A stretch of 64,000 nt of DNA from an uncultured Bacteroidales bacterium (GTDB taxonomy: Bacteria; Bacteroidota; Bacteroidia; Bacteroidales; P3): the NCBI GenBank assembly GCA_947168665.1, contig CAMVMX010000010.1, positions 37,400-101,399 on the forward strand. Reading direction: 5' to 3'. Shown here piece after piece: positions 26,006-42,834 of this stretch. Made by a program: the position numbers and the translations under genes. Each line of letters opens with the position of its first letter. The first letter of the stretch is position 1. Under the pieces are notes generated by a model. The model was not told the origin of the DNA, searched no databases, and worked only from the letters and a program-made list of their open reading frames with translations.

Positions 26006-27186
26006 TTCTCTTCCTCCTGCTTATTATGCTCGAAAAGTTCTTTTTGTAGTTCTATCTCGCGGCGCAGTTCTTCCTGCGTTGGCATATATGTCAAATATTT
26101 GGCAGCATACATCTGCGGGTTGGTCGCCAATGTGGAGAATTGAGCCACATCGGCATTGGTCTCGGAACATAGTATTATTCCAATGGATGGATTGTCGCCC
26201 TCGGGTCGTTTGTAGGTGTCGTACAGTTTAAGGTACATCTCCATCTGCCCTACGTCCTGATAGCTTATTCGTGTGGTTTTAAGATCTATCAGCACAAAAC
26301 ATTTCAGCAGATAGTTGTAAAAGACCAGGTCTATATAATAGTCGTCGTCTTGTGTGTGTATGTGTTGCTGTCGTGCTACGAAGGCGTAGCCTTTACCCAT
26401 CTCGATAAGGAATGTCTGCAGATGGCTTATAATGGCCTCTTCCAGTTTGCTTTCGGTAAAAGCCGCATCATGGTTCAAGCCGAGAAATTCAACGAGCATA
26501 GGATTCTTGACAAAAGCCGATTTCTCCTGCTGATAGATGGCTGTTTTTTCGACCATCTCTTTTCCCACCTCGGGCTTATGGGCTGCTGGTGTCTGCATCA
26601 GCCGATAGTAGTATTGCGTGTCGATATTGCGCTTCAAGGTGCGGTAGTCCCACTGCTGCGACGCTGCTTCCTGCATATACCACATACGGGCCTCCTTGTC
26701 CGGGATACGCATAAGCTTCTCATAATGCATCCACGACAGCTGTGGAGGCATTGGGATAGAGCCTGTTGCGGATTGGGCAACCAATGGTGACCGAATTGGG
26801 CAAGCAATGCTTGCCCTTTTTGCATTGTCTTTAGCAAGAAGCGTTTGCTGAATTGGGGAAATCCGTTCGACAAATTGGGTAGGCAATGCCTGCCCAATTT
26901 GCAAAGTGTTGAATTCTAAGTAAAATCTACGATAGTTTTTCAATGCAGAGACAGAATAACCTTTCCCAAACTCGGCAGTCAAAGCCTCCGATGCCTGCTT
27001 GATAATCTGTTTGCCATATTCGGCACGCTGCTTGCCGTGCTGTTCCTGCTCCACGATGCGCCAGCCAATAAGCCAATTGCTGGCCACCTGCATTGTGTTG
27101 GCCGCACGGTAGCTATATTCTCTTGCCGACCCAACAATAGTTTTCAGGTCCGAAACAAAGATGTTGTTTTCTGCGATATCACTCAT
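26002..27186 (-). CDS. PDDEXK nuclease domain protein (DUF1016 / YhcG family)
   Basis: Architecture typical of YhcG: N-terminal VASNWLIGWRIVEQEQ..., C-terminal YIDLVFYNYLLKCFVLIDLKT nuclease core. Overlaps hsdS by 4 nt. Confidence 0.75.
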   Translation of the reverse strand: MSDIAENNIFVSDLKTIVGSAREYSYRAANTMQVASNWLIGWRIVEQEQHGKQRAEYGKQIIKQASEALTAEFGKGYSVSALKNYRRFYLEFNTLQIGQALPTQFVERISPIQQTLLAKDNAKRASIACPIRSPLVAQSATGSIPMPPQLSWMHYEKLMRIPDKEARMWYMQEAASQQWDYRTLKRNIDTQYYYRLMQTPAAHKPEVGKEMVEKTAIYQQEKSAFVKNPMLVEFLGLNHDAAFTESKLEEAIISHLQTFLIEMGKGYAFVARQQHIHTQDDDYYIDLVFYNYLLKCFVLIDLKTTRISYQDVGQMEMYLKLYDTYKRPEGDNPSIGIILCSETNADVAQFSTLATNPQMYAAKYLTYMPTQEELRREIELQKELFEHNKQEEEK

Positions 27187-27211
27187 AACATTCTTGCATT
27201 TGGATATGTTA

Positions 27212-28924
27212 CTATCTCCCCATTATTTTATTCATCAGCTCCTGCTCGCGCCGGTCAAGCTCTTGCAGGTGGGCGAAAATATCTTCACTGCGGCGTGGGG
27301 CAACATATTTGTAGAACTCGCGAGTAAAGGGTATCTCGTAGCCAATCTTGGTTTTCTTGGGGTCTATCTTGGCCTTCGGCAGGTATGGGTAGACATTGCG
27401 CTGCATATAATCATCAACGTCCTCTTTCCAAGGGATAGTCTCGGTGTCCTTCTCCTTGCTGTCGACAACCGTCACCTTTCGGAACTTGAAGTCGTCGTTG
27501 TCCTTGATCTTGACCTCGACCTGCAAGTCTCCGTCTTCGTACACGCCATCTTTAAAGGCCAGATATGCTTTCCGCACCAGAGCGATGCAGTCGTCCGTGA
27601 ACTCATTGCGTTTGTTTCCTATGGGCTTGCGGCGTTTGTGGCTGCAATGGCTGGCATCGATTAGCTGCACCTTGCCGCGACGTTTGGCCGTCTTACTTTT
27701 TGTGACAATCCAGATATAAGTGGCGATACCCGTGTTGTAGAACATATCGTTTGGTATCTGCACGATGGCTTCCAGCCAGTCGTTTCCCAGCAGATATCCT
27801 CGTATCTCGCTCTCACCGCTGCCAGCGTCGCCCTTGAACAGCGGCGAACCATTCTGAATGATAGCCATTCGGCCATCATCTTTCAGTTTGGCCACACCAT
27901 TGAGCATAAAGAGCTGCTGGCTGTCGCCAATGGCTGGCAGCCCCGGTGCAAATCGTCCGGCAGCGCCGCGCCGATGCTCGGCTTCGACAGCAGCTTTTTC
28001 GTTCTTCCACTCGATTCCAAACGGGGGATTGGAAATGATATAGTCGAAGCGATAGCCGTCAAACTTGTCGTCGCTCAGGGTGTTCCCGTGTTGCATATTG
28101 TCAGCCTGACCGCCTTTGATGAGCAGGTTTGATTTGGCAATGGCAAAGGTCTGTTCGTTCAGCTCTTGCCCGAACTCTGTCAGCTGAGCGTCGGGGTCAA
28201 TCTCGCGGAGCTTTTCGCCCAGACAGTCGAGCATCTGGCTTGTCCCCATCGCCATATCGTAAATGGAAGCCGTCACACCTTGTTTTTTGAGTATGTCGGA
28301 CTGTTCGGCAATCAGCAGCTCGGCCATTAGATAGATAATGTCACGGGCTGTAAAATGGGCTCCAGCCTGTTCGTCGTAGCTCTCAGAGAACTTTCGAACC
28401 AGCTCTTCAAATATGTAGCCCATATCGACAGCTGAAATAGCGTCGGCACCCATATAGGCTTTCTTGGAACAGAACTCAGCAATGACATTGTAGAGTATGC
28501 CGTTATGCTCCATTTTGGAGATTTCCTTGTCGAAGTCAAACTTCTCGATAATGTCAATCACATTCTTGGAGAAGTGGTTAAGGTAACTGCGGAAGTTGTC
28601 GGCTATGTTGTCGGCATCGGCCAGCAAGCCGTCGAAAGTGAAGCGAGAGGTGTTGTAGAAGTCGAAACCAGCAGCATCACGCAGGAAGCCGTCATAGACT
28701 GCCAGCTTACGCTTCACGGCATAAAGTTCGTAGGCGTCCAGCACGGCTTGCTTGGTCGGTGCAAGAGTGTCGGAGAATCGTTTGATGACGCACATAGGCA
28801 ATACCACATTGCCGTATTCGTGTGGCTTGTATGTGCCTACCAGCTTGTCGGCAATAGCCCAAATCAGATTGGCTTTCTCTTGTATATTGACGGTTGTCCG
28901 TTTTTGTAGTTCTTCTGTTGACAT
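27212..28924 (-). CDS. hsdM: Type I restriction-modification methyltransferase subunit (N6-adenine)
   Basis: HsdM N-terminal domain (IWAIADKLVGTYKPHEYGNVVLPM), IYDMAMGTSQML (AdoMet motif I-like) and the catalytic motif FDYIISNPPFG. Confidence 0.9.
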   Translation of the reverse strand: MSTEELQKRTTVNIQEKANLIWAIADKLVGTYKPHEYGNVVLPMCVIKRFSDTLAPTKQAVLDAYELYAVKRKLAVYDGFLRDAAGFDFYNTSRFTFDGLLADADNIADNFRSYLNHFSKNVIDIIEKFDFDKEISKMEHNGILYNVIAEFCSKKAYMGADAISAVDMGYIFEELVRKFSESYDEQAGAHFTARDIIYLMAELLIAEQSDILKKQGVTASIYDMAMGTSQMLDCLGEKLREIDPDAQLTEFGQELNEQTFAIAKSNLLIKGGQADNMQHGNTLSDDKFDGYRFDYIISNPPFGIEWKNEKAAVEAEHRRGAAGRFAPGLPAIGDSQQLFMLNGVAKLKDDGRMAIIQNGSPLFKGDAGSGESEIRGYLLGNDWLEAIVQIPNDMFYNTGIATYIWIVTKSKTAKRRGKVQLIDASHCSHKRRKPIGNKRNEFTDDCIALVRKAYLAFKDGVYEDGDLQVEVKIKDNDDFKFRKVTVVDSKEKDTETIPWKEDVDDYMQRNVYPYLPKAKIDPKKTKIGYEIPFTREFYKYVAPRRSEDIFAHLQELDRREQELMNKIMGR

Positions 28925-29252: not shown

Positions 29253-29510
29253 CTCTTTTTTTCTTGAATGGCAAAATGTATTTTATAATGGATAGTAAAA
29301 ATGAGATGTGTATTCGGGTGACGGATACGGGCTGAGGTTTGGAGGCTCTGCTCGAGGAGGTGGTCAGTGAAGGGAAGTCCGCTGGCGGGAGCACGCAATA
29401 TCCTTATTCAATGACATCCATCTTTCTTTCCGTTATTGATGGAATAGGTGCTTCCGTGCAATTTGTCGTCCCATCGTGTCAATTTCACTGTCCGCGAGGA
29501 TGGCGGCTGG

Positions 29511-29990
29511 TCATACGTATTGACGTATCAAGTCGGTAATCTTCTTGGCCAAGGCGGCTCGCTCGGAATCGGATAGGCACAGGCCGAACCTGCAACCCGT
29601 ATTGGAATAGACCAGGTACAACGTTTCGGGTCGCCATCCACTATAATCGTCATAGTATTCTACATCCTTTATTGCCGACAATGGTATCTCCATTTTCCGC
29701 TTCAGGATGCACCTGCGACATTCGATGACAAACATTTCGTCTCTCACAGCAATGGTTTCCACAGCACAATGCCACCTCATATCCCTGTCGATGGACATGA
29801 TTGACAATGGAATCATAACCACTGTAAGTGCAGGGATAATAATCAAGCCTACGCCTTCGCCGTTGTTCAGTTCAACCAATGTTAGAACAATCATGCACAA
29901 AGTCGCAAAGGCAGCCACTCTTCCACGGAATGTGGCAAAACCGTCGTATCTCTGGGTTTCGTGGGCTTTGTTTATGGACAAGATTTCCAT
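29511..29990 (-). CDS. Hypothetical membrane protein (2 TM + cytosolic beta-rich domain); last cassette of the array
   Basis: 159 aa with hydrophobic segments FATLCMIVLTLVEL and GLIIIPALTVVMIPLSI. Preceded by leader repeat R1. Confidence 0.55.
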   Translation of the reverse strand: MEILSINKAHETQRYDGFATFRGRVAAFATLCMIVLTLVELNNGEGVGLIIIPALTVVMIPLSIMSIDRDMRWHCAVETIAVRDEMFVIECRRCILKRKMEIPLSAIKDVEYYDDYSGWRPETLYLVYSNTGCRFGLCLSDSERAALAKKITDLIRQYV

Positions 29991-30097
29991 CTTTATTGTC
30001 TGTGCTTATTGTTTCTATTCATTTTATTGTTTCATTCGTGCATTTTCACCTCGCACAGGTGCGGGGTGTCGTTTTTGTGCGGGAGCGACGCCCCGAT
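29991..30097 (-). repeat. Cassette leader repeat R1
   Basis: The plus strand reads ..tgtctgtgcttattgtttctattcattttattgtttcattcgtgcattttcacctcgcacaggtgcggggtgtcgtttttgtgcgggagcgacgccccg. Dyad box cgcacaggtgcg at 30052-30063. Confidence 0.85.
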
Positions 30098-30172
30098 GCG
30101 GCGGATGTTTTGGGGTATGTTGTATCGGATTTGCAATCTGATACTGTTTTCAGGATTTTAAATCCGCAAACA

Positions 30173-30452
30173 TTAGAACAGGTCTGAATGTGAGCCTGTA
30201 CGGTATAGAGAAACAATGCGAACGGTCTCTTTTCGGCTGTAAATGGGAAGCCAGTCTGGATTAATGTGACACTCTCGATACCCACGGTAGTTTCCTGTCA
30301 ACACGTGGTCGCGGTATTTATCGGGCAGCGGTGCCTTCCTGCAGCATATCGGTCACCGTTTTGAGCTGGGCAAGGTCAAGGCCGCGCCGTTTGGCAAGTT
30401 TCAGGTCTTTAACAAACTTGCCACCATATTCCAATTTGTAGCGTATGCCCAT
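30173..30452 (-). pseudogene. yafQ: YafQ/RelE-family toxin, frameshifted
   Basis: Manual translation from ATG 30452: MGIRYKLEYGGKFVKDLKLAKRRGLDLAQLKTVTDMLQEGTAAR then TAA. In a shifted reading frame it continues LPDKYRDHVLTGNYRGYRECHINPDWLPIYSRKETVRIVSLYRTGSHSDLF, a canonical YafQ C-terminus, ending at 30173. Confidence 0.75.
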
Positions 30453-30454
30453 AA

Positions 30455-30688
30455 CTACAAGGTGGCAATTAGGTCATCAATACTTTCGGCGCATTGCACT
30501 CCGTGTCCAGCCTCGACATCGCGAATAGCCTGCATTGTTTCTTCGTTGAGAAAGCATCCGCATTCAGGGTCGAAAAGTGCGTCGGCAGGTTTGGCTTCTG
30601 TAAGCGTCCAGCCCATTCTTTTGGCCAATTTCTGCATAAATGGGAGATCTGCCTTTGGTAACCCGACATTATAAGTGGCTGTGTTCAT
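30455..30688 (-). CDS. DinJ-like antitoxin
   Basis: MNTATYNVGLPKADLPFMQKLAKRMGW...NEETMQAIRDVEAGHGVQCAESIDDLIATL. The C-terminus parallels the E. coli DinJ toxin-binding tail. The stop is 2 nt before the toxin ATG. Confidence 0.6.
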   Translation of the reverse strand: MNTATYNVGLPKADLPFMQKLAKRMGWTLTEAKPADALFDPECGCFLNEETMQAIRDVEAGHGVQCAESIDDLIATL

Positions 30689-30864
30689 AACTTTTAATAT
30701 TAAATGGTTATATTTCAACAACGAAATAATAACTTTTTTATTGTGTCTGTCAATCGGAATATTTCTAATATTATTCAGCGTCGGATCGCAGATCCGCCGC
30801 AACGGGAGCCGTTTCCCATATCGGTTGGGGCTGGCGCAGGGGGGCGACAGCCGTTCTCAAACAG

Positions 30865-31338
30865 CTATTGATTGTGCCTGACAAGAACGGTGATGTCTGT
30901 TGCGCTTACTAACGTGCTTTGCTTTTTTTCAATCAGAGCCAAAGTGTCCGTTGTCAACTTTGTAATTTGGATTTCCCCTTTCTTGTCGCCGTCGGAAAGC
31001 ACAATTGTGCCATTGGCAACATGGTACTGGAAAGACTGGAGAATCGTGTCCATCTCGACAGAGAAGTTTCCATCGGAGAAATCCATTGTCCCGTTAACGA
31101 ATGTGTAAATGCACTTGCCGTCATTTGTGAACTCTATGCCAAGAAGAGGGCTGCATTTGGAGTCGCAAGTGTCGTAAATAACGCCATCGCTTGCTTTCCA
31201 ATCGTTAATCTCATAGACAAAATCCCACTGCCCTACGAGCAGTGTTTCATCAATGTTTTCGTTTCCAGTCCCGCTCTTGCAGGCGGTCATCATTCCGATG
31301 GCGCCCACCATAGCGCCGAGCAAAAATATCTTCTTCAT
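30865..31338 (-). CDS. Lipoprotein, lipocalin-like (tentative)
   Basis: MKKIFLLGAMVGAIGMMTAC lipobox. LVGQWDFVYE... resembles lipocalin-like domain proteins. Preceded by leader R2. Confidence 0.55.
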   Translation of the reverse strand: MKKIFLLGAMVGAIGMMTACKSGTGNENIDETLLVGQWDFVYEINDWKASDGVIYDTCDSKCSPLLGIEFTNDGKCIYTFVNGTMDFSDGNFSVEMDTILQSFQYHVANGTIVLSDGDKKGEIQITKLTTDTLALIEKKQSTLVSATDITVLVRHNQ

Positions 31339-31455
31339 CGTCTGTCTGTGTTTATTGTTTTACTTCATTTTGTTGTTTCATACGGTCATTTTCACCGCGC
31401 ACGGGTGCGGGGTGGCGTTTCAGGGTTGCCGTCCGTAAGGATGGCAGCCGTTGGT
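31339..31455 (-). repeat. Cassette leader repeat R2
   Basis: ctgtctgtgtttattgtttt...ttgttgtttcatacggtcattttcaccgcgcacgggtgcggggtggcg...aaggatggcagccgttgg. Dyad box at 31398-31409. Confidence 0.85.
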
Positions 31456-31932
31456 TCATTTCTTCGACTTTCGAAATTGCTTGTGGTACTTCCTCAGTTG
31501 CCGTTTCAGAAAGAGATGTGTTGGTTCCATAACAGCAAAACGATACTCCATACCTTTGGTCGGTTCCACAATTATGTAGTAGTAATAATCCACACGAAAA
31601 GATATTTCCGAGAATTGTTTGATATTTGACCACTCAATGTCAATTGTACCGAGGTCCTCCCATTCGTAGTCTTTTGTCCGTCTTTGCACATGTTCTATAC
31701 GCAAAAAATCGGGACAGACGACAATGGTGTTTCTTTTTCTCACGATGGCATAGATGATGTGCAGAAGCAAACTGACGGCTGCAACTCCAAGCAATATATA
31801 TCCCCATATGTCGAGCGAGCATGCAAACCAAACCCACGCCCATAACGCTAACATAACGACCAGAAATATTATGCCGACCCACACCCATGCGGTGTCCTTG
31901 TAAACCTTGACGGCATTCTCGGGTATATTCAT
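31456..31932 (-). CDS. Hypothetical membrane protein (2 TM + C-terminal domain)
   Basis: Start taken at MNIPENAV (ATG 31932). The longer ORF start at 31962 lies inside the leader repeat. Confidence 0.55.
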   Translation of the reverse strand: MNIPENAVKVYKDTAWVWVGIIFLVVMLALWAWVWFACSLDIWGYILLGVAAVSLLLHIIYAIVRKRNTIVVCPDFLRIEHVQRRTKDYEWEDLGTIDIEWSNIKQFSEISFRVDYYYYIIVEPTKGMEYRFAVMEPTHLFLKRQLRKYHKQFRKSKK

Positions 31933-31988
31933 TATCTGTCTGTGTTTATTGTTTCCGTTCATTCTGTTGTTTCATTTTTGTTGACGCT
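31933..31988 (-). repeat. Cassette leader repeat R3 (short form)
   Basis: tatctgtctgtgtttattgtttccgttcattctgttgtttcattttt. It has the proximal modules only. Confidence 0.8.
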
Positions 31989-32213
31989 TTAATCAATCAG
32001 TACACAAGCAATGACACCGATGACAAAAGCGGAGATGTTGATGATTAGAATCCATATCTGAAACTTATCCTTTTCTTTTCTACACATTCTCCAGTATCTC
32101 ACAATATCAAATGGGGAGTACCACAGTTTGTCGTAGTAATGGTTCACTGTATAACTGATGTACCACCCTGAGACAAGCCATATCACGCCGAAAACTATAG
32201 CAATTGTTTCCAT
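31989..32213 (-). CDS. Small 2-TM membrane protein, hypothetical
   Basis: 74 aa: METIAIVFGVIWLVSGWYISY...ISAFVIGVIACVLID. Preceded by leader R4. Confidence 0.5.
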   Translation of the reverse strand: METIAIVFGVIWLVSGWYISYTVNHYYDKLWYSPFDIVRYWRMCRKEKDKFQIWILIINISAFVIGVIACVLID

Positions 32214-32289
32214 TATGTCTGTGTTTATTGTTTCCTTTCATTCGGCAGCGACGAGCCGCAGAAGACTGCTATGTGCATATTTACTTGTT
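32214..32289 (-). repeat. Cassette leader repeat R4 (subtype B)
   Basis: tgtctgtgtttattgtttcctttcattcggcagcgacgagccgcagaagactgctatgtgcat. Confidence 0.85.
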
Positions 32290-32706
32290 TCAATCCTTGT
32301 GATAGCCTGCCCAGCTGCTGTTGGACGGGTTGCCTTTCTCGTAGGCAATCTCTATTGGGTCGTGAGGGGCGAACTTCTCCCAGACCGACTTCTTCAATTG
32401 TGTTTTGCCGTGATACAAGCTGTCGTCAATGTAGAAATAATACGACACATAGTAATCACACTTGCGGCCACCGCTAACAGTATATGTTTTCTCAACGCGT
32501 GCAGTAGTCTTGACTGAGTCCTGCTCAATCCTATGGAATTGTATTCGTGCCTGAACGATAGCCACCAACACAACCAGCCCTGAAATCCATACAGGGGACC
32601 AGCGCAGGATGCTGTGTCCAATCTTCTTACGTTTGGCTTTGGCCTGCAGATTTTTATTACTGCCCTTTGTCGGGTAGTTGGGACGGCGGTTGATGTTGTG
32701 GGACAT
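32290..32706 (-). CDS. DUF3592-like membrane-anchored protein
   Basis: Start taken at MSHNINRRPNY (ATG 32706). One TM (WISGLVVLVAIV) followed by ...TTARVEKTYTVSGGRKCDYYVSYYFYIDDSLYHGKT..., typical of DUF3592. Confidence 0.55.
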   Translation of the reverse strand: MSHNINRRPNYPTKGSNKNLQAKAKRKKIGHSILRWSPVWISGLVVLVAIVQARIQFHRIEQDSVKTTARVEKTYTVSGGRKCDYYVSYYFYIDDSLYHGKTQLKKSVWEKFAPHDPIEIAYEKGNPSNSSWAGYHKD

Positions 32707-32795
32707 AGTGTTTATTGTTTTTGTTTCTTCGGCAGCGACGAGCCGCAGAAGACTGCTATGTGCATAGTGGTTATTTCGGTTATGTGATTGGTCTA
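32707..32795 (-). repeat. Cassette leader repeat R5 (subtype B)
   Basis: gtgtttattgtttttgtttcttcggcagcgacgagccgcagaagactgctatgtgcat. The distal module is near-identical to that of R4. Confidence 0.85.
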
Positions 32796-33236
32796 TTATC
32801 CCCAGAAGGGCAATGTCATTGAGTGAGGGAGATACACTATCTTGAACGACACGGCCATCAGAACGGCGCTGGCGACGAAGTAGGCTATCAGTAGCCAGCG
32901 GTTCCTCTTGCGCGCTTTCGGGGGCTCTTCTTTCCACCGGGCCTCGCAGTCGTCGTACAGCTTCTCTTTGTTAAGGATGAAGACGTTGAAAACGGCGATT
33001 GCCACCACGATAATCCACAGCAGGTTGGCCGACAGCTGGTGGCCGAACAGCAGAACGGGCAGGATCAGCAGCGTGTTGAGGTTGGAGATTTGAAGCAGCG
33101 ATACGATGCCCATCGAGGATATCAGATGGGTCGGATCGACCTTCTGCGTCAGCGGGTCATAGGACAAGGAGTAATGCACGGGATGGTCCCAGAACCGCGT
33201 TATCCTGTAGAAACAGTATTTGTAAAACTTTAGCAT
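32796..33236 (-). CDS. Hypothetical multi-pass membrane protein
   Basis: 146 aa with about 3 hydrophobic helices. Preceded by leader R6. Confidence 0.5.
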   Translation of the reverse strand: MLKFYKYCFYRITRFWDHPVHYSLSYDPLTQKVDPTHLISSMGIVSLLQISNLNTLLILPVLLFGHQLSANLLWIIVVAIAVFNVFILNKEKLYDDCEARWKEEPPKARKRNRWLLIAYFVASAVLMAVSFKIVYLPHSMTLPFWG

Positions 33237-33335
33237 CTTTTATCTGTTGTTTCATTTCTGCATTTTCACTGCGCTCGGGTGCGACGCCCCGCAGAAGACT
33301 GAGATGTTCATTGTGTCTGTGTTTTTGTGTCGTTG
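33237..33335 (-). repeat. Cassette leader repeat R6 (subtype A)
   Basis: ctgttgtttcatttctgcattttcactgcgctcgggtgcgacgccccgcagaagactgagatgttcattgtgtctgtgttt. Confidence 0.85.
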
Positions 33336-33665
33336 TCAGAACACGCGGTCGCCGTTCTTCACCGGGTGGGTGGGGCGCAGGAGGACGACACCCTGGGCGG
33401 AGTCGGTGCCGAGAATGCGCACCTCGCTCTTGACGGAGCCGATGTGCATCGGCTGCAGGTTGACGCAGCACACCACCTGCGTGCCGACGAGGTCGTCGGG
33501 AGTGTAGAGGGCGGTGATTTGCGCCGACGATTTCTTCAGCCCGATTTCGGGGCCGAAGTCGATGGTGACCGCATAGGCGGGATGGCGTGCTTTCTTGTTT
33601 TCGGCGACGGCCACCACGGTGCCCACCCGCACTTCCACTTTGTCAAAGTCTGTTACTTCTATCAT
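33336..33665 (-). CDS. tRNA-binding domain protein (CsaA/YgjH-like OB fold)
   Basis: FDKVEVRVGTVVAVAENKKARHPAYAVTIDFGPEIGLKKSSAQIT...LVGTQVVCCVNLQPMHIGSVKSEVRILG is the classic stand-alone tRNA_bind domain. Visibly GC-richer than its neighbours. Confidence 0.75.
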   Translation of the reverse strand: MIEVTDFDKVEVRVGTVVAVAENKKARHPAYAVTIDFGPEIGLKKSSAQITALYTPDDLVGTQVVCCVNLQPMHIGSVKSEVRILGTDSAQGVVLLRPTHPVKNGDRVF

Positions 33666-33848
33666 ATTGTTTCTTTTAAATCTGTTGTTTCATTTCTGCA
33701 TTTTCACCGCGCACGGGTGCGACGCCCCGCAGAAGACTGAGATGTGCATTGTGATGTTTCTGTTTTCTTTGCCGTCACCTCCGCTATGGTCGGTGGCCAT
33801 AGCACGCAAGGATGGCAGCCGATTGTCTTTTGTAGAGTGTATGTAATG
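33666..33848 (-). repeat. Cassette leader repeat R7 (subtype A, long form)
   Basis: ctgttgtttcatttctgcattttcaccgcgcacgggtgcgacgccccgcagaagactgagatgtgcattgtg...aaggatggcagccgattg. Confidence 0.85.
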
Positions 33849-34364
33849 TTATTTCTTTTGCGATGGGTAAATGGGTTGGCCATTCCAACTTGCGGTAAAT
33901 ATTCCGTATAGTTCATCGTCAAAGTCAATAACATAATTCTCGTCAACGAACTGCAACGTCCCCTTGTCATCTACATATAATGTAGACCAACCTGTACGGC
34001 TATCTTCACACGCCCACCAGTCATGAAATCCTTTGGGCAGGTCTTCGAGTGCCTTATCAACGACCAAACCTTTTGGATTCACGTTGACGACCATATCGAA
34101 TATTGGATCAGCCATATCCAGTCGTGAAATACATTCGCTAAACACTTCATCCCATTTGCAGCCTACCCGAGACAAAAGAAACCTATATAATGGAGCGTAG
34201 TCATTGAAATGCCTTCTTTGCCTTCGCTTGATGGGCAGTTGCGATGGCAGCACATCTTGTTTCTTATGGCGCTCGTTTCTGTACCTATCCGTCTCTTGGC
34301 TGTAAAACCGAAATCCATTATGCGTAATTTTGTTTACTTTGCGATAAAGCGGCTTCTTCTCCAT
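33849..34364 (-). CDS. Hypothetical cytoplasmic protein
   Basis: Start taken at MEKKPLYRKV (ATG 34364). The longer start (34394) reads through the leader repeat. No family recognised. Confidence 0.5.
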   Translation of the reverse strand: MEKKPLYRKVNKITHNGFRFYSQETDRYRNERHKKQDVLPSQLPIKRRQRRHFNDYAPLYRFLLSRVGCKWDEVFSECISRLDMADPIFDMVVNVNPKGLVVDKALEDLPKGFHDWWACEDSRTGWSTLYVDDKGTLQFVDENYVIDFDDELYGIFTASWNGQPIYPSQKK

Positions 34365-34569
34365 TTTCTGTCTGTGTTTATTGTTTCTATTCAATCTGTT
34401 GTTTCATTTCTGCATTTTCACCGCGCTCATGAGCGGGGTATTGTTTTTGTGCGAAAGTCGGCCGCGCTCATGAGCGGAGGACACTTTCCGAGTGAAAATC
34501 GGCCGCGCTCGTGAGCGGGGTGCGTTTTCCGGCCTCGTCCGTGGTTGCGCTCATGAGCGCGGTGTGTTT
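34365..34569 (-). repeat. Cassette leader repeat R8 plus a 4 x ~41-bp tandem array of palindromic boxes (34421-34569)
   Basis: The proximal modules match R3/R7. They are followed by boxes cgctcatgagcg (34424-34435, 34465-34476), cgctcgtgagcg (34506-34517) and gcgctcatgagcgc (34547-34560), spaced 41, 41 and 42 nt apart. Confidence 0.9.
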
Positions 34570-35091
34570 TCACGCCTCCGTCGGCTCTTCGCCCGGTGTC
34601 GCGGGCTCAGCGTCGGGCTCGGGCGTCTTCTTGTCGCGGTGCGAGGGTGCCATCGCGTGCTTGCGGAAGTATTCGAGGTCTTCGCTGACGAGGGCGACGA
34701 GTTTCTGCGCCTCGGCGCGGTCGGGGTTGAGGAGGGCGTAGGCGTTGGTGAGGCGCACGAGGGTGAGGTAGGCGCGGTCGGTGGCCTCGCGGGCGGCCTT
34801 GAGCTCGCCCATGATTTGCGCCGAGCGCTCGTCGTTGCGTTCGGTGAGGAGCTGGCGCACGCGGTCGTCGTCGGCCTTGATGGGGTCGGTGAGCTCGCTG
34901 TCGCGGTAGCGCTTGAAGGCTTCGTCCTCGGCCCTGAAGGCGGTGTCGAACTCGTCCTTGCCCTTGCGCCAGAGCTCGTGGTCGACGGGCAGCTCGGCGG
35001 TGCGCTTGCCGAAGGTGGTCATGTACTCGTAGTGCGGCGCGTTGGCCGCGCGGCCGACGGTGACGTCGGGAATCTGTGCTGTGAGTTCCAT
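34570..35091 (-). CDS. Hypothetical protein, strikingly GC-rich gene
   Basis: 173 aa, acidic and helical (…DEFDTAFRAEDEAFKRYRDSELTDPIKADDDRVRQLL…). Its codon usage is unlike all neighbouring island genes. No family recognised. Confidence 0.5.
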   Translation of the reverse strand: MELTAQIPDVTVGRAANAPHYEYMTTFGKRTAELPVDHELWRKGKDEFDTAFRAEDEAFKRYRDSELTDPIKADDDRVRQLLTERNDERSAQIMGELKAAREATDRAYLTLVRLTNAYALLNPDRAEAQKLVALVSEDLEYFRKHAMAPSHRDKKTPEPDAEPATPGEEPTEA

Positions 35092-35117: not shown

Positions 35118-35663
35118 TTATTGTTCCGAATATTCTTGTCCGTACAGGAAATCCATAAGGTCAACAAACTCAAACTGGCAACCTGGTTTGACGATGAGCA
35201 CCCCACTTGTACAACTGTCCTGGGGGATGAAAGCAATGTCGCCTTGACAAAATATCTTTTTGTCCGCCGAGGTCTTGTGATATTTAACACCCATCTTTTC
35301 CAGTTTTTGGCCGCACTCATAATAGTAATACCCCCAGTCGTCCGCCGCAACATAGAAGCCTTCCAGTGCCGCGGAGTCGTTTTCCAGGTCGTGCAGCATT
35401 TTTTCCCAACATTCATTGGAACGGAATATCAAAACATATTCTGTTTGCTTCCCGTCCACATACACATCCGCCGTCTCTCGATATTGAGATACGGTGTCGC
35501 CGACGGAAACAACACCATTGAAAGAGGTATCTCCTGCGGTCTCGTTTGCCGTGCCGCCCTTGCATCCGGCCATCATCGCCACGGCGCACAGCACCGCGAG
35601 TGTGAAGAAAGTCCAGTGGACTTTAGATAGCGTAGCGGAGAATAAATTAAATACTTTCTTCAT
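35118..35663 (-). CDS. Hypothetical lipoprotein (shared signal peptide family)
   Basis: ...FFTLAVLCAVAMMAGCKGG lipobox. The mature domain is unrecognised. Confidence 0.55.
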   Translation of the reverse strand: MKKVFNLFSATLSKVHWTFFTLAVLCAVAMMAGCKGGTANETAGDTSFNGVVSVGDTVSQYRETADVYVDGKQTEYVLIFRSNECWEKMLHDLENDSAALEGFYVAADDWGYYYYECGQKLEKMGVKYHKTSADKKIFCQGDIAFIPQDSCTSGVLIVKPGCQFEFVDLMDFLYGQEYSEQ

Positions 35664-35675: not shown

Positions 35676-36188
35676 TTATTGGTTAGACTCTTCTTTCTTT
35701 TCTTTGTTTATTCTTTCAAATGCTTTCTCGGCTGCTTGGGAGCCTCTGAAAACGTAAAGGTCATCGGAAAACTCGGCCCATGTGTAGGTGTGCTCATCCG
35801 CCATAATGTCTATCGACATTAATTCAATCATCGACGCAAGCACCTGTTCCCGTCTTTCGGGGGAAAGTTTGTCGAGGCCTTCCAGTTCCATATTCTCCAA
35901 GAACCTGATGTACTGCATGCTTTTGTATAGGCTGTAGCCCATATCTTCGGAGTACCCGCCGTCCGCTTTGTCGATGTTCTGGAAGAGGAAAGACCATTCT
36001 TCTGGAAGGAGTGTGTCGCCCCCGCGCATTTTTTCCGCCAGCCGCTCCCATTCGTCAACGTTGAACGTGTCGGTCGCGGTCTCGGTTGCCGTTGACTCAT
36101 CAAGTTTGGCAGGCGTACCACCGCCCTTGCATCCGGCCATCATCGCCACGGCGCACAGTATCGCGAGGGTTAAAAATACTTTCTTCAT
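35676..36188 (-). CDS. Hypothetical lipoprotein (shared signal peptide family)
   Basis: Start taken at MKKVFLTLAILCAVAMMAGCKGG (ATG 36188). Helical mature domain. Confidence 0.55.
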   Translation of the reverse strand: MKKVFLTLAILCAVAMMAGCKGGGTPAKLDESTATETATDTFNVDEWERLAEKMRGGDTLLPEEWSFLFQNIDKADGGYSEDMGYSLYKSMQYIRFLENMELEGLDKLSPERREQVLASMIELMSIDIMADEHTYTWAEFSDDLYVFRGSQAAEKAFERINKEKKEESNQ

Positions 36189-36211
36189 TTTTAGGAATTG
36201 TTTGTGGGACA

Positions 36212-36799
36212 TTATTTGATTTGTATTGATTCATCGAATGCAGGTTCGGTGAGGGTTACGGTCTTGTATGTGTTGTCCGGAGTGTCGTAGACGCGCCAGT
36301 CGCCAATGCCGAGGAAGCCGTCGTGTATAAACCCTTCGTATCCGGTGTAATATCCGTCGCCTTCCTTGTTGATGGTGGTGCCGTCATCGGTGTACTCCTT
36401 GTAGTGCGCCCTGTATTCGAACCTGTTCAGGCCAATCACAGTGTCCGTTTTTTCGATGCCGGTGAAATGGCAGTATAGTTTCCCCTTGATATACACCTTT
36501 AGTTCTCCACATTCGTTGCCGTTGCAGTAGTTAACCTCCGAAATCATCCTATCGCTCTCTTCATACAGCCACAGGCCGTCTTTTTTGCCATTGGCATTGT
36601 ACCGGTTTATTTTTCCCGCCAAGGAATCGTTTGCGGTCTCGGTTGCCGTTGCCTCATCAAGTTCGGCAGGCATACCACGCTCGGCAAGCTCGCCGGGCAT
36701 ACCAGCCTCATCGAGTTCGGCAGGCGTGCCACCGCCCTTGCATCCGGCCATCATCGCGAGGGCGACCACCGCCGTGCATATCATCTTTGTCTTCTTCAC
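36212..36799 (-). CDS. Lipoprotein with MORN-variant/YwqK-like repeats (tentative)
   Basis: GTG start. (M)KKTKMICTAVVALAMMAGCKGG lipobox. Internal duplication GTPAELDEAGMPGELAERGMPAELDEA. NANGKKDGLWLYEE...EVNYCNGNECGELKVY resembles YwqK-type antitoxin/immunity repeats. Confidence 0.5.
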   Translation of the reverse strand: MKKTKMICTAVVALAMMAGCKGGGTPAELDEAGMPGELAERGMPAELDEATATETANDSLAGKINRYNANGKKDGLWLYEESDRMISEVNYCNGNECGELKVYIKGKLYCHFTGIEKTDTVIGLNRFEYRAHYKEYTDDGTTINKEGDGYYTGYEGFIHDGFLGIGDWRVYDTPDNTYKTVTLTEPAFDESIQIK

Positions 36800-36870
36800 T
36801 GTCTGTCTGTGTGTCTTGGTGTTTCCGTGTAAACTGTTGTTTTGTTGCTTGCATCATTGTTTTACCAAGT
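36800..36870 (-). repeat. Degenerate ninth copy of the cassette leader (R9)
   Basis: ctgtctgtctgtgtgtcttggtgtttccgtgtaaactgttgttttgttgcttgcat aligns loosely with the proximal and middle leader modules. Confidence 0.5.
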
Positions 36871-37135: not shown

Positions 37136-37654
37136 TCAAAGTTGCTTCATTGGAGAGGACATAGGGATTCGTTTTAGGGTCAGTGTGGTCACGATGGTAT
37201 CGTGTTCGGATGGGTCGACATTGGTAAGCGCCATGCTTTCTTGCGAAAGCATGTCTATCCTGAGCCATGGATTCCATTGCCCGGAATCCTCCCTGAGCAT
37301 TATGCTGTCATTTCGCAGTGTGTAGCCGTATTGATATGTATTCGTGTCGCCGTGGTGCCACGCGGTTTCATAATAATAGCCGTCATCGTCAAAACGCCAT
37401 ATAAGATTAGGCACAACAGTATCGTTCCGTTCTTTTCCGGAGGTGATTGTTCTCCTGTCCAACCGAACCACTTTCCACTCGCCGAGCAACAGCAGTTGCC
37501 AGTCGTGCTCTAATCCGCCTTTGCTATGCTGGGTGTCGGTGCTCTCAATTCCGATAATGCTGTCGGCTGCGTCTTCGTTTGCCGCCCCACTCTTGCATCC
37601 GGCCATCATCGCCACGGCACACAGCACCGTGAGGGTTAAAAATGCTTTCTTCAT
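37136..37654 (-). CDS. Lipoprotein, lipocalin-like (tentative; shared signal peptide family)
   Basis: MKKAFLTLTVLCAVAMMAGCKSG lipobox, followed by LLLGEWKVVRLD.... Confidence 0.55.
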   Translation of the reverse strand: MKKAFLTLTVLCAVAMMAGCKSGAANEDAADSIIGIESTDTQHSKGGLEHDWQLLLLGEWKVVRLDRRTITSGKERNDTVVPNLIWRFDDDGYYYETAWHHGDTNTYQYGYTLRNDSIMLREDSGQWNPWLRIDMLSQESMALTNVDPSEHDTIVTTLTLKRIPMSSPMKQL

Positions 37655-37773
37655 ATACCTTTTATGTTATATGTTATGCATCAATCTTTCGGCGGGGTTT
37701 TGTTGCGGCGCGGCGGCAAGCCGCCGCGAAGAACAGGAATCCACGTGCAAGTTTGTCTTCCATTTCTCGTGCT

Positions 37774-39435: not shown

Positions 39436-40389
39436 TTACTTCCGTTTCAGCACCGCGTGCACCTTCTCGACGATGTCGGCGGCGCGGAGGTGGTAGTTGG
39501 TGAGCATCTCGTCGGGGGTGCCGCTCTCGCCGAACTTGTCGTCCACGGCCACGTACTCCATCGGCGTGGGGCAGTGCAGGGCGAGGGTCTGGGCCACGCT
39601 ATCGCCGAGGCCGCCGTTGAAGAGGTGCTCCTCGCAGGTCACCACGGCGCGGGTCTTCTTGGCGCTGGCCACGATGGCCTCCACGTCGAGCGGCTTGATG
39701 GTGTGGATGTTGATGACTTCGGCGCTGATGCCTTCCTTCTCCAGGGCTTCGGCGGCCTGCAGGGCTTCCCACACAAGGTGGCCGCAGGCGAAGAGGGTCA
39801 CGTCCTTGCCCTCGCTCAGCAGCTGGGCTTTGCCGATCTCGAACTTCTCATTCTCCGGCAGGAAGCAGGGCATCTTCGAGCGGCCGAGGCGCAGGTAGAC
39901 GGGGCCGACGTGCTCGGCGGCGGCCAGCGTGGCGGCCTTGGCCTGGTTGAAGTCGGCGGGCACCAGCACGGTCATATTGGGCAGGGCCTTCATCAGGGCG
40001 ATGTCCTCCATCGTCTGGTGCGTGGCGCCGTCCTCGCCGAGCGAGATGCCGGCGTGCGAGCCGCAGATCTTCACGTTCTTGTTGCTGTAGGCCACGACCT
40101 GGCGGATCTGGTCGTAGACGCGGCCGGTGACGAACTCGGCGAAGCCGCCCAGGAAGGGCACCTTGCCGCAGAGGCTCAGACCGGCGGCGATGCCGACCAT
40201 ATTGGCCTCGGCGATGCCGCACTGGATGAAGCGCTCGGGGAACTCCTTGGCGAAGCCGTCCATCTTGACGCTGCCTTTCACGTCGGCGCTCAGCGCCACG
40301 ACATTCTCATTGCGCTTGCCAGCTTCCACAAGGCCTTCGCCCATACCGGCGCGCAGTTCTTTCATTGATTGTTTTTCGTAGTGGGTCAT
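39436..40389 (-). CDS. Transketolase, C-terminal (pyrimidine-binding + C-terminal domain) subunit
   Basis: FPERFIQCGIAEANMVGIAAGLS...GEDGATHQTMEDIALMKALPNMTVLVPAD...INIHTIKPLD. Confidence 0.9.
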   Translation of the reverse strand: MTHYEKQSMKELRAGMGEGLVEAGKRNENVVALSADVKGSVKMDGFAKEFPERFIQCGIAEANMVGIAAGLSLCGKVPFLGGFAEFVTGRVYDQIRQVVAYSNKNVKICGSHAGISLGEDGATHQTMEDIALMKALPNMTVLVPADFNQAKAATLAAAEHVGPVYLRLGRSKMPCFLPENEKFEIGKAQLLSEGKDVTLFACGHLVWEALQAAEALEKEGISAEVINIHTIKPLDVEAIVASAKKTRAVVTCEEHLFNGGLGDSVAQTLALHCPTPMEYVAVDDKFGESGTPDEMLTNYHLRAADIVEKVHAVLKRK

Positions 40390-40403: not shown

Positions 40404-41027
40404 TTATTGTTTTATAGGAATGCGTATTACTGTCTTTGTCTTTTCGGGGGCGGTCTTTCTGGGGTCGGACAGGTAGATCTCATGGTGGAGTCGTTCCCCC
40501 ATGTCGATATGGTAGCCTTGGTTGGCGGCAAAGCGTTCCATGGCATCGATGGTTGCCGGCTCGTTGTCGTATGGGCCGATGTGCATGCACTGCACGCAGA
40601 GGCCTTCGTCATAGGTGAAGAAATCTACCGCCCGGTAGTCGGCTTTTTTCTTCCGGGCCGCCTCGTCTTTTGCCCAGTCGACATCGGTGGGCCGCACAAA
40701 GTCCGGGAGTCGGATCATGGATATGAAATTGAACGCTTGCTTGTCCGAATAGTCAAACACACCCGCCTCTGTCCACCACAGCCCCTCCAGCGGAGGCACC
40801 ACGTAGTCGAAATACCCCTCCATTTTGCGACTGCCCATTTTGCTCATCTTGATGGTATAAGCTATCCCGTAAAGCAACTCTATAGAGTGTTTGTATTCAC
40901 TCCCTTCGGTATTGGGGTCACCTTTGCCCCTGACCGCTATATAGTTTATCGGCGGCACCTGCACAATGGACGGGGCTGTTGCAGGTTTATAAAATTCCTT
41001 ATATTCTTTTTTGAAGTCGAATGCCAT
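40404..41027 (-). CDS. GyrI-like small-molecule-binding domain protein
   Basis: FDFKKEYKEFYKP...PPINYIAVRGKGDPN...PLEGLWW...HHEIYLSDPRK is typical GyrI-like/SOUL-type. Confidence 0.7.
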   Translation of the reverse strand: MAFDFKKEYKEFYKPATAPSIVQVPPINYIAVRGKGDPNTEGSEYKHSIELLYGIAYTIKMSKMGSRKMEGYFDYVVPPLEGLWWTEAGVFDYSDKQAFNFISMIRLPDFVRPTDVDWAKDEAARKKKADYRAVDFFTYDEGLCVQCMHIGPYDNEPATIDAMERFAANQGYHIDMGERLHHEIYLSDPRKTAPEKTKTVIRIPIKQ

Positions 41028-41035
41028 ATTGCGTT

Positions 41036-42040
41036 TTATTGGTTATTCTTGTTTATCAAATTCACTACTACCTTCACCATCACGTCCTTCTCCTCGGGAC
41101 GGCTCTCGGCTATCATCAGGGTGAGGGCTACGAGGGTGCCGTCTGCAATGCGCTTGGTGCCGTCCTCGCGGTAGAGGATGCGGTTGTTGTTCAGGAACCA
41201 GAGGAACAGCGTGGCGGCGATGCGCTTGTTGCCGTCACTGAACGAGTGGTTCTTGGTGACGAGGTAAAGCAGCATTGCGGCCTTCTCCTCCACAGAAGGG
41301 TAGAACTCCACGCCGTCGAAGGTCTGATATATCTGTCCGATACTGCTGCGGAACGACTCGTCCTTCTCGTTGCCGAAGAGAGGGCTCTCGCCGAACCGTT
41401 CCTTGACGGCTTGGATGGCTTGCATCGCGTTGTCGTAGGTGGCGTGGAAAGGAGCCTCGGCGGTGGTGTCGGCCACGGCAAGGCGCTGGTAGTCGTAACT
41501 GTCGAGAGTGGAGAGGGCATAGGTGTAGTCCACCACCACGTCGAGCAGTCCTTGGCTGTCCACAGGTTTCTCCTCGTCGCTCTGCTTCAGCGTGCGCCCC
41601 ACGAGCTGCACCAGCTGCCGCAACTCGGTGAGGTTCTCCTGCCGTATCTTCTCGTTGATGGCAAAACCCTTGGTGAGGTAATCTTTCAGCACGCGGTTGG
41701 CCCATTGGCGAAACCGTGTGGCGACCTTGGATTTGATGCGGTAGCCCAATGCAATTATCATATCAAGGTTGTAGTATGATATATTGTAGTTCTTGCCATC
41801 GGAAGCAGTTGTTCGGAATTTCCGAACAACTTCACTCTGTACAAGCTCTTCTTCCTCGAAGATATGCTTGATATGCTCACTTACATTGGCTTTACTGGAT
41901 TGATACAGTTCTACCATTTGCTGTTGTGTCAGCCAAATGGTCTCATCCGCCAATTTTACTTCTAAATTGGTACTTCCATCTTTGGATTGATAGATTACTA
42001 TCTCCCCTCGGTTCTCCATATTTTCGTTTTGATTCATCAT
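41036..42040 (-). CDS. RhuM-family virulence protein fused to a Fic/Doc domain
   Basis: The N-terminus, IVIYQSKDGSTNLEVKLADETIWLTQQQMVELYQSSKANVSEHIKHIF...YYNLDMIIALGYRIKSKVATRFRQWA, is RhuM-like. The C-terminus carries HSFSDGNKRIAA, a Fic/Doc core-motif variant. The ATG at 42040 overlaps the upstream TGA (ATGA). Confidence 0.75.
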   Translation of the reverse strand: MMNQNENMENRGEIVIYQSKDGSTNLEVKLADETIWLTQQQMVELYQSSKANVSEHIKHIFEEEELVQSEVVRKFRTTASDGKNYNISYYNLDMIIALGYRIKSKVATRFRQWANRVLKDYLTKGFAINEKIRQENLTELRQLVQLVGRTLKQSDEEKPVDSQGLLDVVVDYTYALSTLDSYDYQRLAVADTTAEAPFHATYDNAMQAIQAVKERFGESPLFGNEKDESFRSSIGQIYQTFDGVEFYPSVEEKAAMLLYLVTKNHSFSDGNKRIAATLFLWFLNNNRILYREDGTKRIADGTLVALTLMIAESRPEEKDVMVKVVVNLINKNNQ

Positions 42041-42834
42041 CTCATCCAGCCCTCCATGCGGTATATTTTCTCCATCAGCTTGCGGGCTTTGCCTTTTGTG
42101 GGCTTGTGCCATACCTCGACGCGCACGGCGTAGTAGTCCTCCCAGTCGCCCTCGTAGATGGTGAACGACTTATGGTTTGGCTCAACTATCTGTCCAAAAC
42201 CGTTGTGGTTCAGCACCTGCGTGGTGGTGCGCGGTTTCAGCCTGTCTTTTGACAGTTCGATGTTCTCTGTCACCTCAAAGCAGCGGAGGTAAATCTCGCC
42301 GTCCTCCAAAGCCGGCCAATAGAATGCAAAATTATATATGCCGCCCTGGTCGCCATTCCATATCTGCAGCCACGTGGTGGTGTCGGTGCTGTCTATGACG
42401 ACGGGGGTGAAGATGTCCCCATCGGTGGCATTCCATCTGTGAGCGGTGTCGGTGATGGGTATGTTATATTCCAGCCCTTCGGGTATAGGGTGGCTCTTGC
42501 CGAAATCGTCAGGTGCCATACTGAACAACCCTGCTACAAACATTGAGAAAAACATAAAACCGATGACAGCCTCCAAAACCAAACTGGCAATTCCTGCCAG
42601 AAATGCCCCGACGGCACGTCGCCATTCCTTCCTCAGCAAGAGAATGATGAAAACCGGCAGCTGCAAAAGAAACACAAAGGCAGAAATGCTTGCAAAGACG
42701 AGCCCCCACACGGTGGATTCTGCACCAACAAACAGCGAGGCCACAAGCAACAGTCCCGTCGCCAGCGGGAACACCCACCAGAACCGCACTATCCAATCAT
42801 TGAAACACTTTCCCGTCATACCCTCAATCCTCAT
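42037..42834 (-). CDS. Hypothetical membrane protein (4 TM N-terminal, soluble C-terminal domain)
   Basis: 265 aa. Coupled to both neighbours by overlaps. No family recognised. Confidence 0.5.
   Translation of the reverse strand: MRIEGMTGKCFNDWIVRFWWVFPLATGLLLVASLFVGAESTVWGLVFASISAFVFLLQLPVFIILLLRKEWRRAVGAFLAGIASLVLEAVIGFMFFSMFVAGLFSMAPDDFGKSHPIPEGLEYNIPITDTAHRWNATDGDIFTPVVIDSTDTTTWLQIWNGDQGGIYNFAFYWPALEDGEIYLRCFEVTENIELSKDRLKPRTTTQVLNHNGFGQIVEPNHKSFTIYEGDWEDYYAVRVEVWHKPTKGKARKLMEKIYRMEGWMR

Follow-up and report, generated by a model that had tools for sequence, protein, structure and literature searches.

The 64,000-nucleotide stretch analyzed here (the window; positions 37,400 to 101,399 of contig CAMVMX010000010.1, assembly GCA_947168665.1, from an uncultured Bacteroidales bacterium) contains four tandem palindromic units of ~41 nt (34421-34573, minus strand), located directly after a gene of the DUF6261 family and followed by an array of eight co-oriented, leader-bearing gene cassettes, R8 to R1 (29996-34440, minus strand). 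Coordinates are given for the forward strand of the window; all local genes are on the minus strand, so the coding direction corresponds to descending coordinates. The tandem array is a conserved feature and not a local accident, and the locus as a whole represents a hotspot for cassettes, set in a fixed chromosomal frame. The order of this frame is tktN, a VWA gene, tktC, a Zn-ribbon gene, DUF6261, the units, the variable cassettes, a LOG-family gene (Lysine_decarbox/SLOG), a gene for a 235-aa protein, Dus, and an outer-membrane protein gene. The window keeps the same frame, with the intact LOG gene (6217-6804, minus strand) forming the conserved 3' boundary of the variable region.

The palindromic units and the cassettes that follow them

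Each unit is an extended imperfect palindrome of the form GAAAr...CyC-CGCTCAyGAGCG-CGGyCGATTTTC, and together the four occupy all of the space from the DUF6261 stop codon to the leader of the first cassette. Their core palindromes, CGCTC(A/G)TGAGCG, are perfect in 4/4 units and spaced 41, 41, and 42 nt apart. The core of unit 1 (34547-34560) is a 14-nt perfect palindrome reading GCGCTCATGAGCGC in the coding direction, that is, (G)CGCTCATGAGCG(C) with the 12-nt core starting from 34548, and the stop codon of the DUF6261 gene lies within its left flank, GTGAAAAC. Unit 2 (34506-34517) has the core CGCTCGTGAGCG, which is CGCTCACGAGCG on the coding strand; units 3 (34465-34476) and 4 (34424-34435) both carry CGCTCATGAGCG, the latter being fused directly to leader R8 (...GAGCG-CGGTGAAAATG... 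on the coding strand). An array of period 41 (34421-34531) was detected by Tandem Repeats Finder. The window contains 9 matches to the pattern CGCWCNNGWGCG, compared with 0.46 +/- 0.70 expected from shuffles, and 8/9 of these fall within 30052-34559; all true dyad and leader copies of the window lie within 29996-34573.

The first-pass annotation of this DNA, made by a model from the letters alone, had reported four boxes with the same coordinates and the same 41/41/42 spacing, and they are present as placed. Its location of the units between a GC-rich gene and leader R8 also stands, with the frame corrected: they lie downstream of the DUF6261 gene and upstream of the open reading frame (ORF) at 33849-34364. 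The first box is in register with CGCACAGGTGCG or CGCACGGGTGCG of other leaders, as had been proposed, R1, R2, R7, and R8 aligning within one repeat family (D1). R6, described as a half-changed form, indeed has the mixed dyad CGCTCGGGTGCG at 33272, and the flanking 8-mers said to occur in both orientations, ATTTTCAC (34414-34421) and GTGAAAAT (34492-34499), are an exact inverted pair.

The cassette segment (29-34 kb) has a G+C content of 0.44-0.53, compared with 0.55-0.62 in the flanks, and comprises eight small ORFs, each with a full or partial copy of the leader upstream. Leader R8 (34365-34423, minus strand) is a conserved 5' untranslated module, CGGTGAAAATGCAGAAATGAAACAACAGATTGAATAGAAACAATAAACACAGACAGAAA, extending as far as the ATG with which the first cassette ORF starts (nhmmer E = 4.5e-21); the leader consensus is CGGTGAAAATGCAGAAATGAAACAACAGATTGAAyAGAAACAATAAACACAGACAGAnA-ATG. 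The first cassette ORF (33849-34364, minus strand) encodes 171 aa with no Pfam family. Most cassette proteins are likewise without a Pfam assignment; the cassette products include several lipoproteins or small membrane proteins. Direct reading of the leader sequences revealed no Bacteroidetes-type promoter motif, hence the cassettes are probably co-transcribed and any hairpins between them are intercistronic.

A cassette consists of a leader starting from ...GCG|CGGTGAAAATG, an ORF, and a short 3' module ending in CyC-CGC-xyNNy'x'-, so that the dyad straddles every junction; in many cassettes it lies only 2-10 nt past the stop codon. At the R7 junction the dyad CGCACGGGTGCG (33710-33721) is preceded, in the coding direction, by a fragment of the 5' end of a LOG gene (33722-33749), and at the R6 junction the dyad of mixed class CGCTCGGGTGCG (33272-33283) is preceded by another such fragment (33284-33311). 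At the R4 junction (32243-32278, minus strand), which lacks a dyad, a truncated leader adjoins a LOG 5' fragment that stems from a second allele, ATGCACATAGCAGTCTTCTGCGGCTCGTCGCTGCCG (repeat family D5), and the R5 junction (32730-32765) is its twin. The dyad of the R2 junction, CGCACGGGTGCG (31398-31409), follows a unit-derived module (…CTGAAACGCCACCC), and that of the R1 junction, CGCACAGGTGCG (30052-30063), follows a LOG 5' fragment fused to a unit-type spacer.

In all full leaders there is a short upstream ORF of 3-9 codons starting with ATGAAACAA (MKQ…), such as MKQQIE* in R8 (34387-34407), which may be a translated leader peptide or a chance occurrence. Some leaders of other genomes carry one of two different hairpin-containing inserts at the same point, just past ATGAAACA(A/C)C: CCCGTTAGGGGAACCGAACACCGCTTAATTAAATCAAATAAAGTGAGG and CCCATTCGCAAGAGCGAGAGCAATGAGAGCTTGCTCGC…, with lengths of 48 nt in loci L002, L007, L054, and L082, and about 55 nt in L057, L245, and L252. 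These could be optional leader modules or miniature insertions.

Conservation of the unit module and symmetry of its cores

Related loci were collected by a scan of one genome per species with a leader anchor that excluded the dyad, yielding 106 loci, about 55 of them real. All real leader loci belong to Bacteroidales metagenome-assembled genomes from rumen and gut samples, and no match was found among named Bacteroides or Parabacteroides in this one-genome-per-species set. A scan of metagenomes with the DUF6261 protein, together with look-ups of exact proteins, added further loci. The arrangement of a DUF6261 gene, 2-6 tandem units, and leader-bearing cassettes was present in more than 25 genome and metagenome loci. 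The units stand directly after the DUF6261 stop codon in the window and in L001, L014, L030, L035, L041, L048, L062, L072, L082, L084, L102, L232-L237, L240, L241, and L247. The module is also found in unrelated neighborhoods beside DUF6261 homologs of ~55% identity, with five CGCTCAyGAGCG units in L261, whereas L262, L264, and L265 have three or four units that repeat every 42 nt and have TGCA-ATGG-TGCG as their core; a more distant DUF6261 gene (L275) has no units. No copies were found in phage and plasmid collections by blastn, and matches of the leader anchor and the unit pattern in IMG/VR were due to chance; a phage or plasmid origin was rejected accordingly. Searches of full-text literature gave no description of this locus, and DUF6261 turned up in only one, unrelated paper.

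The units are position-specific, their spacers being orthologous between genomes (first, …CCACGGACGAGGCCGGAAAACGCACC; middle, CGGyCGATTTTCACyCGGAAAGTGyCCyC; last, …TTTTCGCACCGAAACAACACCC), and the flanking GATTTTC and GAAAG tracts are conserved. An identification of the array as CRISPR was rejected: its 29-nt "spacers" are conserved and orthologous between genomes, and cas domains are absent. A neutral origin was weighed as well, in which the units would be a selfish or neutral repeat, a quasi-palindrome amplified by slippage or unequal exchange, kept symmetric by template-switch correction, and turned into a hotspot by the fragility of palindromes. The variation in copy number from 2 to 6 between genomes, the ability of any two palindrome copies to pair, which favors slippage, and microhomology deletions near the array (in L054, for example, from GACCACGAGC in the DUF6261 gene to the unit-1 spacer) agree with such an origin. 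However, unit order and unit-specific spacers are kept across diverged genomes and core classes, which argues for an array that is old and stable rather than recently amplified. The module is moreover retained beside the ~55%-identity DUF6261 homologs in unrelated contexts, and the repeat is not dispersed, the only match outside the array in the 64 kb, at 27573, being non-palindromic. We consider a slippage product the least probable of the explanations weighed.

Comparison of the cores revealed invariant dyad arms and a center that varies in symmetric classes: AC..GT, TC..GA, and AT..AT, plus a degenerate TGCA-N4-TGCG. Unit arrays use TC..GA or AT..AT, and AC..GT is seen at cassette junctions. 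Within an array the cores are all of a single class, either CGCTCAyGAGCG or CGCAT(AT/CG)ATGCG depending on the genome, and the class switches array-wide while the spacers stay orthologous. Junction dyads are often of another class than the units of the same genome; strict palindromy characterizes the tandem units and the junctions derived from them.

Covariation was assessed on 55 distinct leader junctions, again chosen by an anchor excluding the dyad. Pair 4/9 was A-T in 30 of them, T-A in 15, and unpaired in 10; pair 5/8 was C-G in 40 and T-A in 6. Double-change cells numbered 24 versus 9.6 +/- 2.2 in shuffles (0/500 shuffles were as high, and slid registers collapsed), a statistic that overstates the evidence, because the three or four core classes are inherited as blocks and independent compensatory events are therefore few. 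The paired symmetric substitutions noted in the first-pass annotation are thus real, with this reservation as to their number. Its further suggestion of selection on a hairpin or a dimeric site is supported only in part; the array-wide class switch is not what a simple model acting on one hairpin at a time predicts.

One way to account for sites that switch class together with unchanged spacers is an array of binding sites for a dimeric DNA-binding protein, placed about four helical turns apart and acting as an operator, a silencer, or a sopC-like centromere, with classes co-evolving with the specificity of the protein. The strict 41-bp spacing, the conserved GATTTTC and GAAAG flanks, mismatches without strand bias, and palindromy running through the center in many cores (TCATGA, ATATAT, ATCGAT, ACATGT, ACCGGT) are all consistent with it. 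Against this stand the junction dyads, which often differ in class from the units of the same genome, and the sites of the L262 lineage, which have lost their palindromy at the level of duplex DNA. Searches gave neither partition genes nor copies on plasmids or phages, and no candidate binder is linked to the array: DUF6261, often truncated or deleted (L014, L240, L258, L020, L054), has no recognizable DNA-binding fold. We consider a protein-binding array improbable, although somewhat less so than the slippage product.

The DUF6261 gene of the window (34570-35091, minus strand), the conserved 5' neighbor of the unit array, encodes 173 aa; compared with its 259-aa homologs, it has lost about 75 internal aa through an in-frame deletion. 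Truncation, internal deletion, or near loss of the gene with the units kept was observed in the window, L014, L020, L054, L240, and L258. In the metagenome loci L242-L254, unrelated genes are inserted in DUF6261 after codon ~33 or ~43. The gene itself is a rearrangement hotspot. The AlphaFold model of the protein (pLDDT 79) is an all-helical bundle. A role as a recombinase or DNA binder was considered and rejected, since Foldseek gave no match at E <= 0.001, a sequence search of PDB returned only coiled-coil noise, and the array often persists beside a truncated gene. Nor do the genes upstream of distant DUF6261 loci (an Asp-protease-like gene, a KilA-N gene, and a 383-aa ORF) represent a common platform gene, as they are mutually unrelated.

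The main rival of the interpretation given below is that the dyads are intercistronic RNA hairpins, such as 3' stabilizers, processing sites, or insulators, similar to the repetitive extragenic palindromes (REP) and bacterial interspersed mosaic elements (BIME) of E. coli operons, with cassettes shuffled through homologous recombination between leaders. The lack of a Bacteroidetes-type promoter motif in the leaders and the position of the dyad 2-10 nt after the stop codon in many cassettes favor it. So does folding: each unit forms a ~36-nt hairpin closed by an A-tract/U-tract stem, and the array folds as RNA better than shuffles (z = -4.3), although whole-array folds cannot discriminate, because identical palindrome copies pair with each other. 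In L262, L264, and L265, the stems survive only via G-U pairs on the sense strand (-8 to -9.6 versus about -2 kcal/mol). Yet wobble pairs of the three main classes favor neither strand (G-U 13 versus A-C 11), RNAalifold found no consensus structure on the mixed junction set, and Rfam gave no family match, whether at its gathering thresholds or at E <= 1. A consensus scan showed no excess of terminator-like sites (8 found versus 7.6 expected), the two dyads that it flagged are on the antisense strand, and the T-tract begins 6-7 nt past the stem on the sense strand, where it pairs with the upstream A-tract, instead of directly following the hairpin as in a terminator. Finally, a role limited to hairpins explains neither the concerted class switch nor the fixed joining point of unrelated sequences described in the next section. 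We regard a purely RNA-level function as unlikely, but it is a stronger contender than the two alternatives above. An RNA role and a recombination site are not mutually exclusive, as integron attC sites also fold in mRNA.

Cassette junctions and the recombination-site interpretation

Cassette junctions in other genomes do fall at the dyad, the check that the first-pass annotation had proposed. Unrelated left partners join the leader at one point, dyad positions 8-10 in the right arm; they include the 5' end of LOG (…GCGTCGCTCCCG|AGCGCGGTG), the stop codon of a glyoxalase gene (TAA|CGCGGTG, four loci), codon ~24 of DUF6261 in L020, and the left partner in L036. Furthermore, in pairs of loci that have the same downstream cassette and different upstream DNA, identity starts from dyad positions 9-13. 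The leader module therefore has a fixed left end within the dyad's right arm, and the larger part of the dyad is carried by the preceding cassette at its 3' end. LOG-derived left halves have either T or A at position 4, which suggests that the 6-bp center is exchangeable as a block, with crossovers on either side.

The cassettes themselves are extensively shuffled. They fall into 37 ORF families with 76 leader-preceded instances, and the number of distinct upstream neighbors of a family nearly equals its number of loci. A genome with a tktC gene 98% identical to that of the window has only 2 cassettes between the units and LOG. Homologs of the lipoprotein cassette c1 were found only in metagenomes of the same lineage, which gives no link to cultured Bacteroides. 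One of them (L255, 9627-10667), located beside a peptidase M13 gene, has a TAATTTG (-7-like) motif upstream and no leader, and yet a LOG 5' fragment and a further cassette come after it; it may mark a second place where arrays occur or the context from which a cassette originated.

Cassette 3' ends often bear the first ~35-45 nt of the LOG gene, including its start codon. The sequence ATGAACATCTCAGTCTTCTGCGGGGCGTCGC, which precedes many junction dyads, including those of R4-R7 in the window, is the 5' end of this gene (MNISVFCGAS…), and it continues as …CGCTCCCG|CACAGCGAA in intact genes and as …CGCTCCCG|AGCGCGGTGAAAATG in cassettes. In addition to the four copies of the window listed above, such fragments are present in L240 (10735-10775), L245, L252, and L258. 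At least two alleles are represented, …GGGGCGTCGC… and …GGCTCGTCGCTGCCG…, and the 5' sequence of the window's own LOG gene differs; thus, the fragments were derived from other alleles or genomes. A derivation of the units from LOG 5' coding sequence was rejected, as only the 8-mer CGCTCCCG is common to both and the local alignment score (16) does not exceed that of shuffles (16.7 +/- 2.5).

At a probability of about 0.5, we favor the interpretation that the dyads serve as core recombination sites in a cassette hotspot of integron-like or rAID-like type, the tandem units being cargo-less sites at its head. It draws on the anatomy of the repeat, the conservation of the module across many genomes, the shuffling of cassettes, the breakpoints at the dyad, and the concerted switching of classes, all of which are observed. 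Small promoter-less gene cassettes would be joined at sites whose core is the palindrome, the setting being a hypervariable chromosomal locus of a rumen and gut Bacteroidales lineage. The invariant arms (CGC/GCG, CyC/CGG, and CA/TG) may constitute the recognition part, and the variable 6-bp center may be the crossover region, which would have to match between partners. Such matching would explain both block inheritance and array-wide class identity: sites that need to match each other or a common partner would show a concerted class switch. The four units would be copies of the site without cargo, stacked at 41-bp intervals, and could serve as a landing pad, as accessory binding sites, or be simply amplified sites. 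No enzyme is linked to the array, so the recombinase would need to act in trans, and we infer a site-specific enzyme encoded elsewhere in the genome, the candidates being a Xer/rAID-like tyrosine recombinase or one that recognizes a single-stranded hairpin. The LOG 5' duplicates at cassette ends are compatible with recombination at the dyads, because integration or excision at a site overlapping the end of a gene would leave such a pattern.

Several results weigh against this interpretation. The sizeable ORFs of the window yielded no recombinase or transposase domain, and none was found beside the arrays in the annotated neighborhoods of related loci; the conserved neighbor, DUF6261, is modeled as a plain helical bundle with no fold match. 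Neither a circular cassette nor an empty site was observed. All cassettes are co-oriented, although a fully palindromic site would impose no direction on them. Ordinary homologous recombination via the 60-120-nt repeated leader and LOG modules (the leader being ~60-75 nt) could explain much of the shuffling with no dedicated enzyme. A linkage test yielded no unique breakpoint at the dyad, the first 5-mer of the leader being tied to the upstream side at p = 0.002 and to the ORF family at p = 0.08, values confounded by shared ancestry. Lastly, dyad symmetry is poorly kept at LOG-derived junctions (10/16).

A narrower form of the recombination-site interpretation, which we put forward tentatively and consider doubtful as a whole, is a previously undescribed cassette capture system of Bacteroidales with no linked integrase, having a short palindromic CGC-N6-GCG site with symmetric N6 classes, an enzyme in trans, an acquisition platform of stacked empty sites next to DUF6261, and the LOG 5' end as a secondary site. 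The trans-encoded enzyme might act on the sense-strand hairpin, and the cassettes would share a common translation leader. If real, such a system would represent a second independent solution to the integron problem and possibly a key to the building of rAID-type arrays. Genes are gained to a major extent through cassette arrays, among them integrons and the rAID immunity arrays of gut Bacteroidales. The present locus offers a simple, defined site with natural specificity classes, a conserved platform of empty sites, and footprints in the form of LOG 5' duplications and a fixed fusion point. It also means that abundant uncultured rumen Bacteroidales carry a hypervariable locus rich in small surface and membrane proteins of no known function.

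Other variable features were noted in the vicinity. After the last cassette ORF (29511-29990), a decayed leader copy, AGTGAAATTGACACGATGGGACGACAAATTGCACGGAAGCA, is present at ~29440-29500, which suggests that the array once extended there and was broken by an insertion carrying a restriction-modification system. This type I system (HsdR, HsdS, HsdM; 20652-28924) lies in the variable region between the leader cassettes and LOG, with a gene for a DUF1016/YhcG PDDEXK nuclease between hsdM and hsdS, and the related genomes L240 and L258 have nothing at the matching place. The 235-aa gene following LOG was considered as a nuclease, but gave no Pfam or PDB match. A second variable segment of about 7 kb (40404-47614), between the VWA gene and tktC, splits the transketolase halves (tktN, 49631-50476; tktC, 39436-40389) and contains an RHS-repeat fragment, genes for a RhuM/Fic protein, a GyrI-like protein, and an esterase, and ORFs with no family; at this position L014 has a single 216-aa gene. 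Upstream of DUF6261, lipoprotein genes with no leader have near-identical signal-peptide DNA (…MMAGCKGG…), and one gene of this group contains a 27-bp in-frame tandem repeat in 3 copies; the positions noted for these features are 36652-36733 and 31271-31357, 35534-35609, 36101-36207, 36732-36818, and 37567-37673. These genes look like a paralogous family.

Comparison with known systems

Cassette arrays with repeats at their junctions are a known kind of locus, and integrons are among the closest known systems. The similarities include co-oriented, mostly promoter-less single-ORF cassettes of no known function, a palindromic site at every cassette boundary that is homogeneous within an array, and a heavily shuffled cassette order that differs from genome to genome, the junctions falling at the repeat. 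The breakpoint is close to the base of the palindrome, in its right arm, most of the site staying with the upstream ORF, and the fixed left end of the leader is the analog of the crossover position in attC. However, no IntI-type integrase is adjacent to the array or encoded elsewhere in the 64 kb, and the dyad of 12 nt (22 nt with the outer arms) differs from attC sites of 57-141 bp with R''/L''-L'/R' boxes. Moreover, each cassette here has a conserved 60-75-nt leader up to the ATG, and the array is headed by 2-6 empty sites stacked after the DUF6261 gene.

With REP/BIME elements of enterobacteria and pseudomonads the units share imperfect palindromes of ~35-40 nt, tandem clusters, a location in intergenic or 3' regions of operons, and stable RNA hairpins. 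REPs, in contrast, are dispersed in hundreds of copies and associated with RAYT transposases, whereas all copies in the 64 kb are confined to one 4.6-kb array and no RAYT (IS200/IS605-like) transposase was found in the window or in the related loci retrieved. In Neisseria, intergenic mosaic elements consist of arrays of short palindromic dRS3 repeats alternating with conserved spacers, dRS3 being a target of site-specific integration, and "minimal mobile elements" are variable regions between conserved flanking genes that hold different genes in different strains. These elements belong to another phylum, differ in sequence, and have neither a regular 41-bp period nor a cassette leader, so that the parallel is only an analogy.

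Xer/dif-type simple sites, and those bounding the pdif modules of Acinetobacter plasmids, have short inverted arms around a 6-bp center that matches between sites, the recombinase that moves the modules being encoded elsewhere. The dyads have a similar layout, with short inverted arms around a 6-bp center, and by analogy a matching of centers would explain classes inherited as blocks; unlike them, pdif sites are inverted in orientation and plasmid-borne, and the likeness drawn here is one of site layout. The sopC centromere of plasmid F is made of 12 tandem 43-bp repeats with one inverted repeat each, and the array resembles it in having tandem units of ~41-43 bp with one palindrome per unit, homogeneous within the array. 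It differs in being chromosomal, in heading a cassette array with no ParA/ParB-type genes, and in that the same dyad also occurs singly at junctions.

The closest described system, compared by its published description, is rAID-1 of gut Bacteroidales: arrays of short, co-oriented genes with intergenic repeat motifs "reminiscent of integrons" and, 5' of the genes, a XerD-like recombinase (10.1101/471110). The mechanism of rAID-1 array formation is still described as unknown (PMC12247911). Both types of locus reside in Bacteroidales, have a G+C content below that of the host genome, and contain repetitive intergenic motifs. At the 5' end of the present array, however, DUF6261 takes the place of a XerD-like recombinase (>44% identity to BF9343_RS08045), no recognized immunity domains were found among the cassettes tested, and the genes, while co-directional, have a G+C content of 0.44-0.53 versus the published cut-off of <= 41% for two or more downstream genes (10.1101/471110). 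The locus lacks the defining features of integrons (IntI, attC), of rAID-1 (recombinase and G+C content), of REP/BIME elements (dispersal), of terminators, and of CRISPR arrays. With the palindrome marking each cassette boundary and no recombinase gene nearby, it looks like an undescribed integron-like gene-capture locus.

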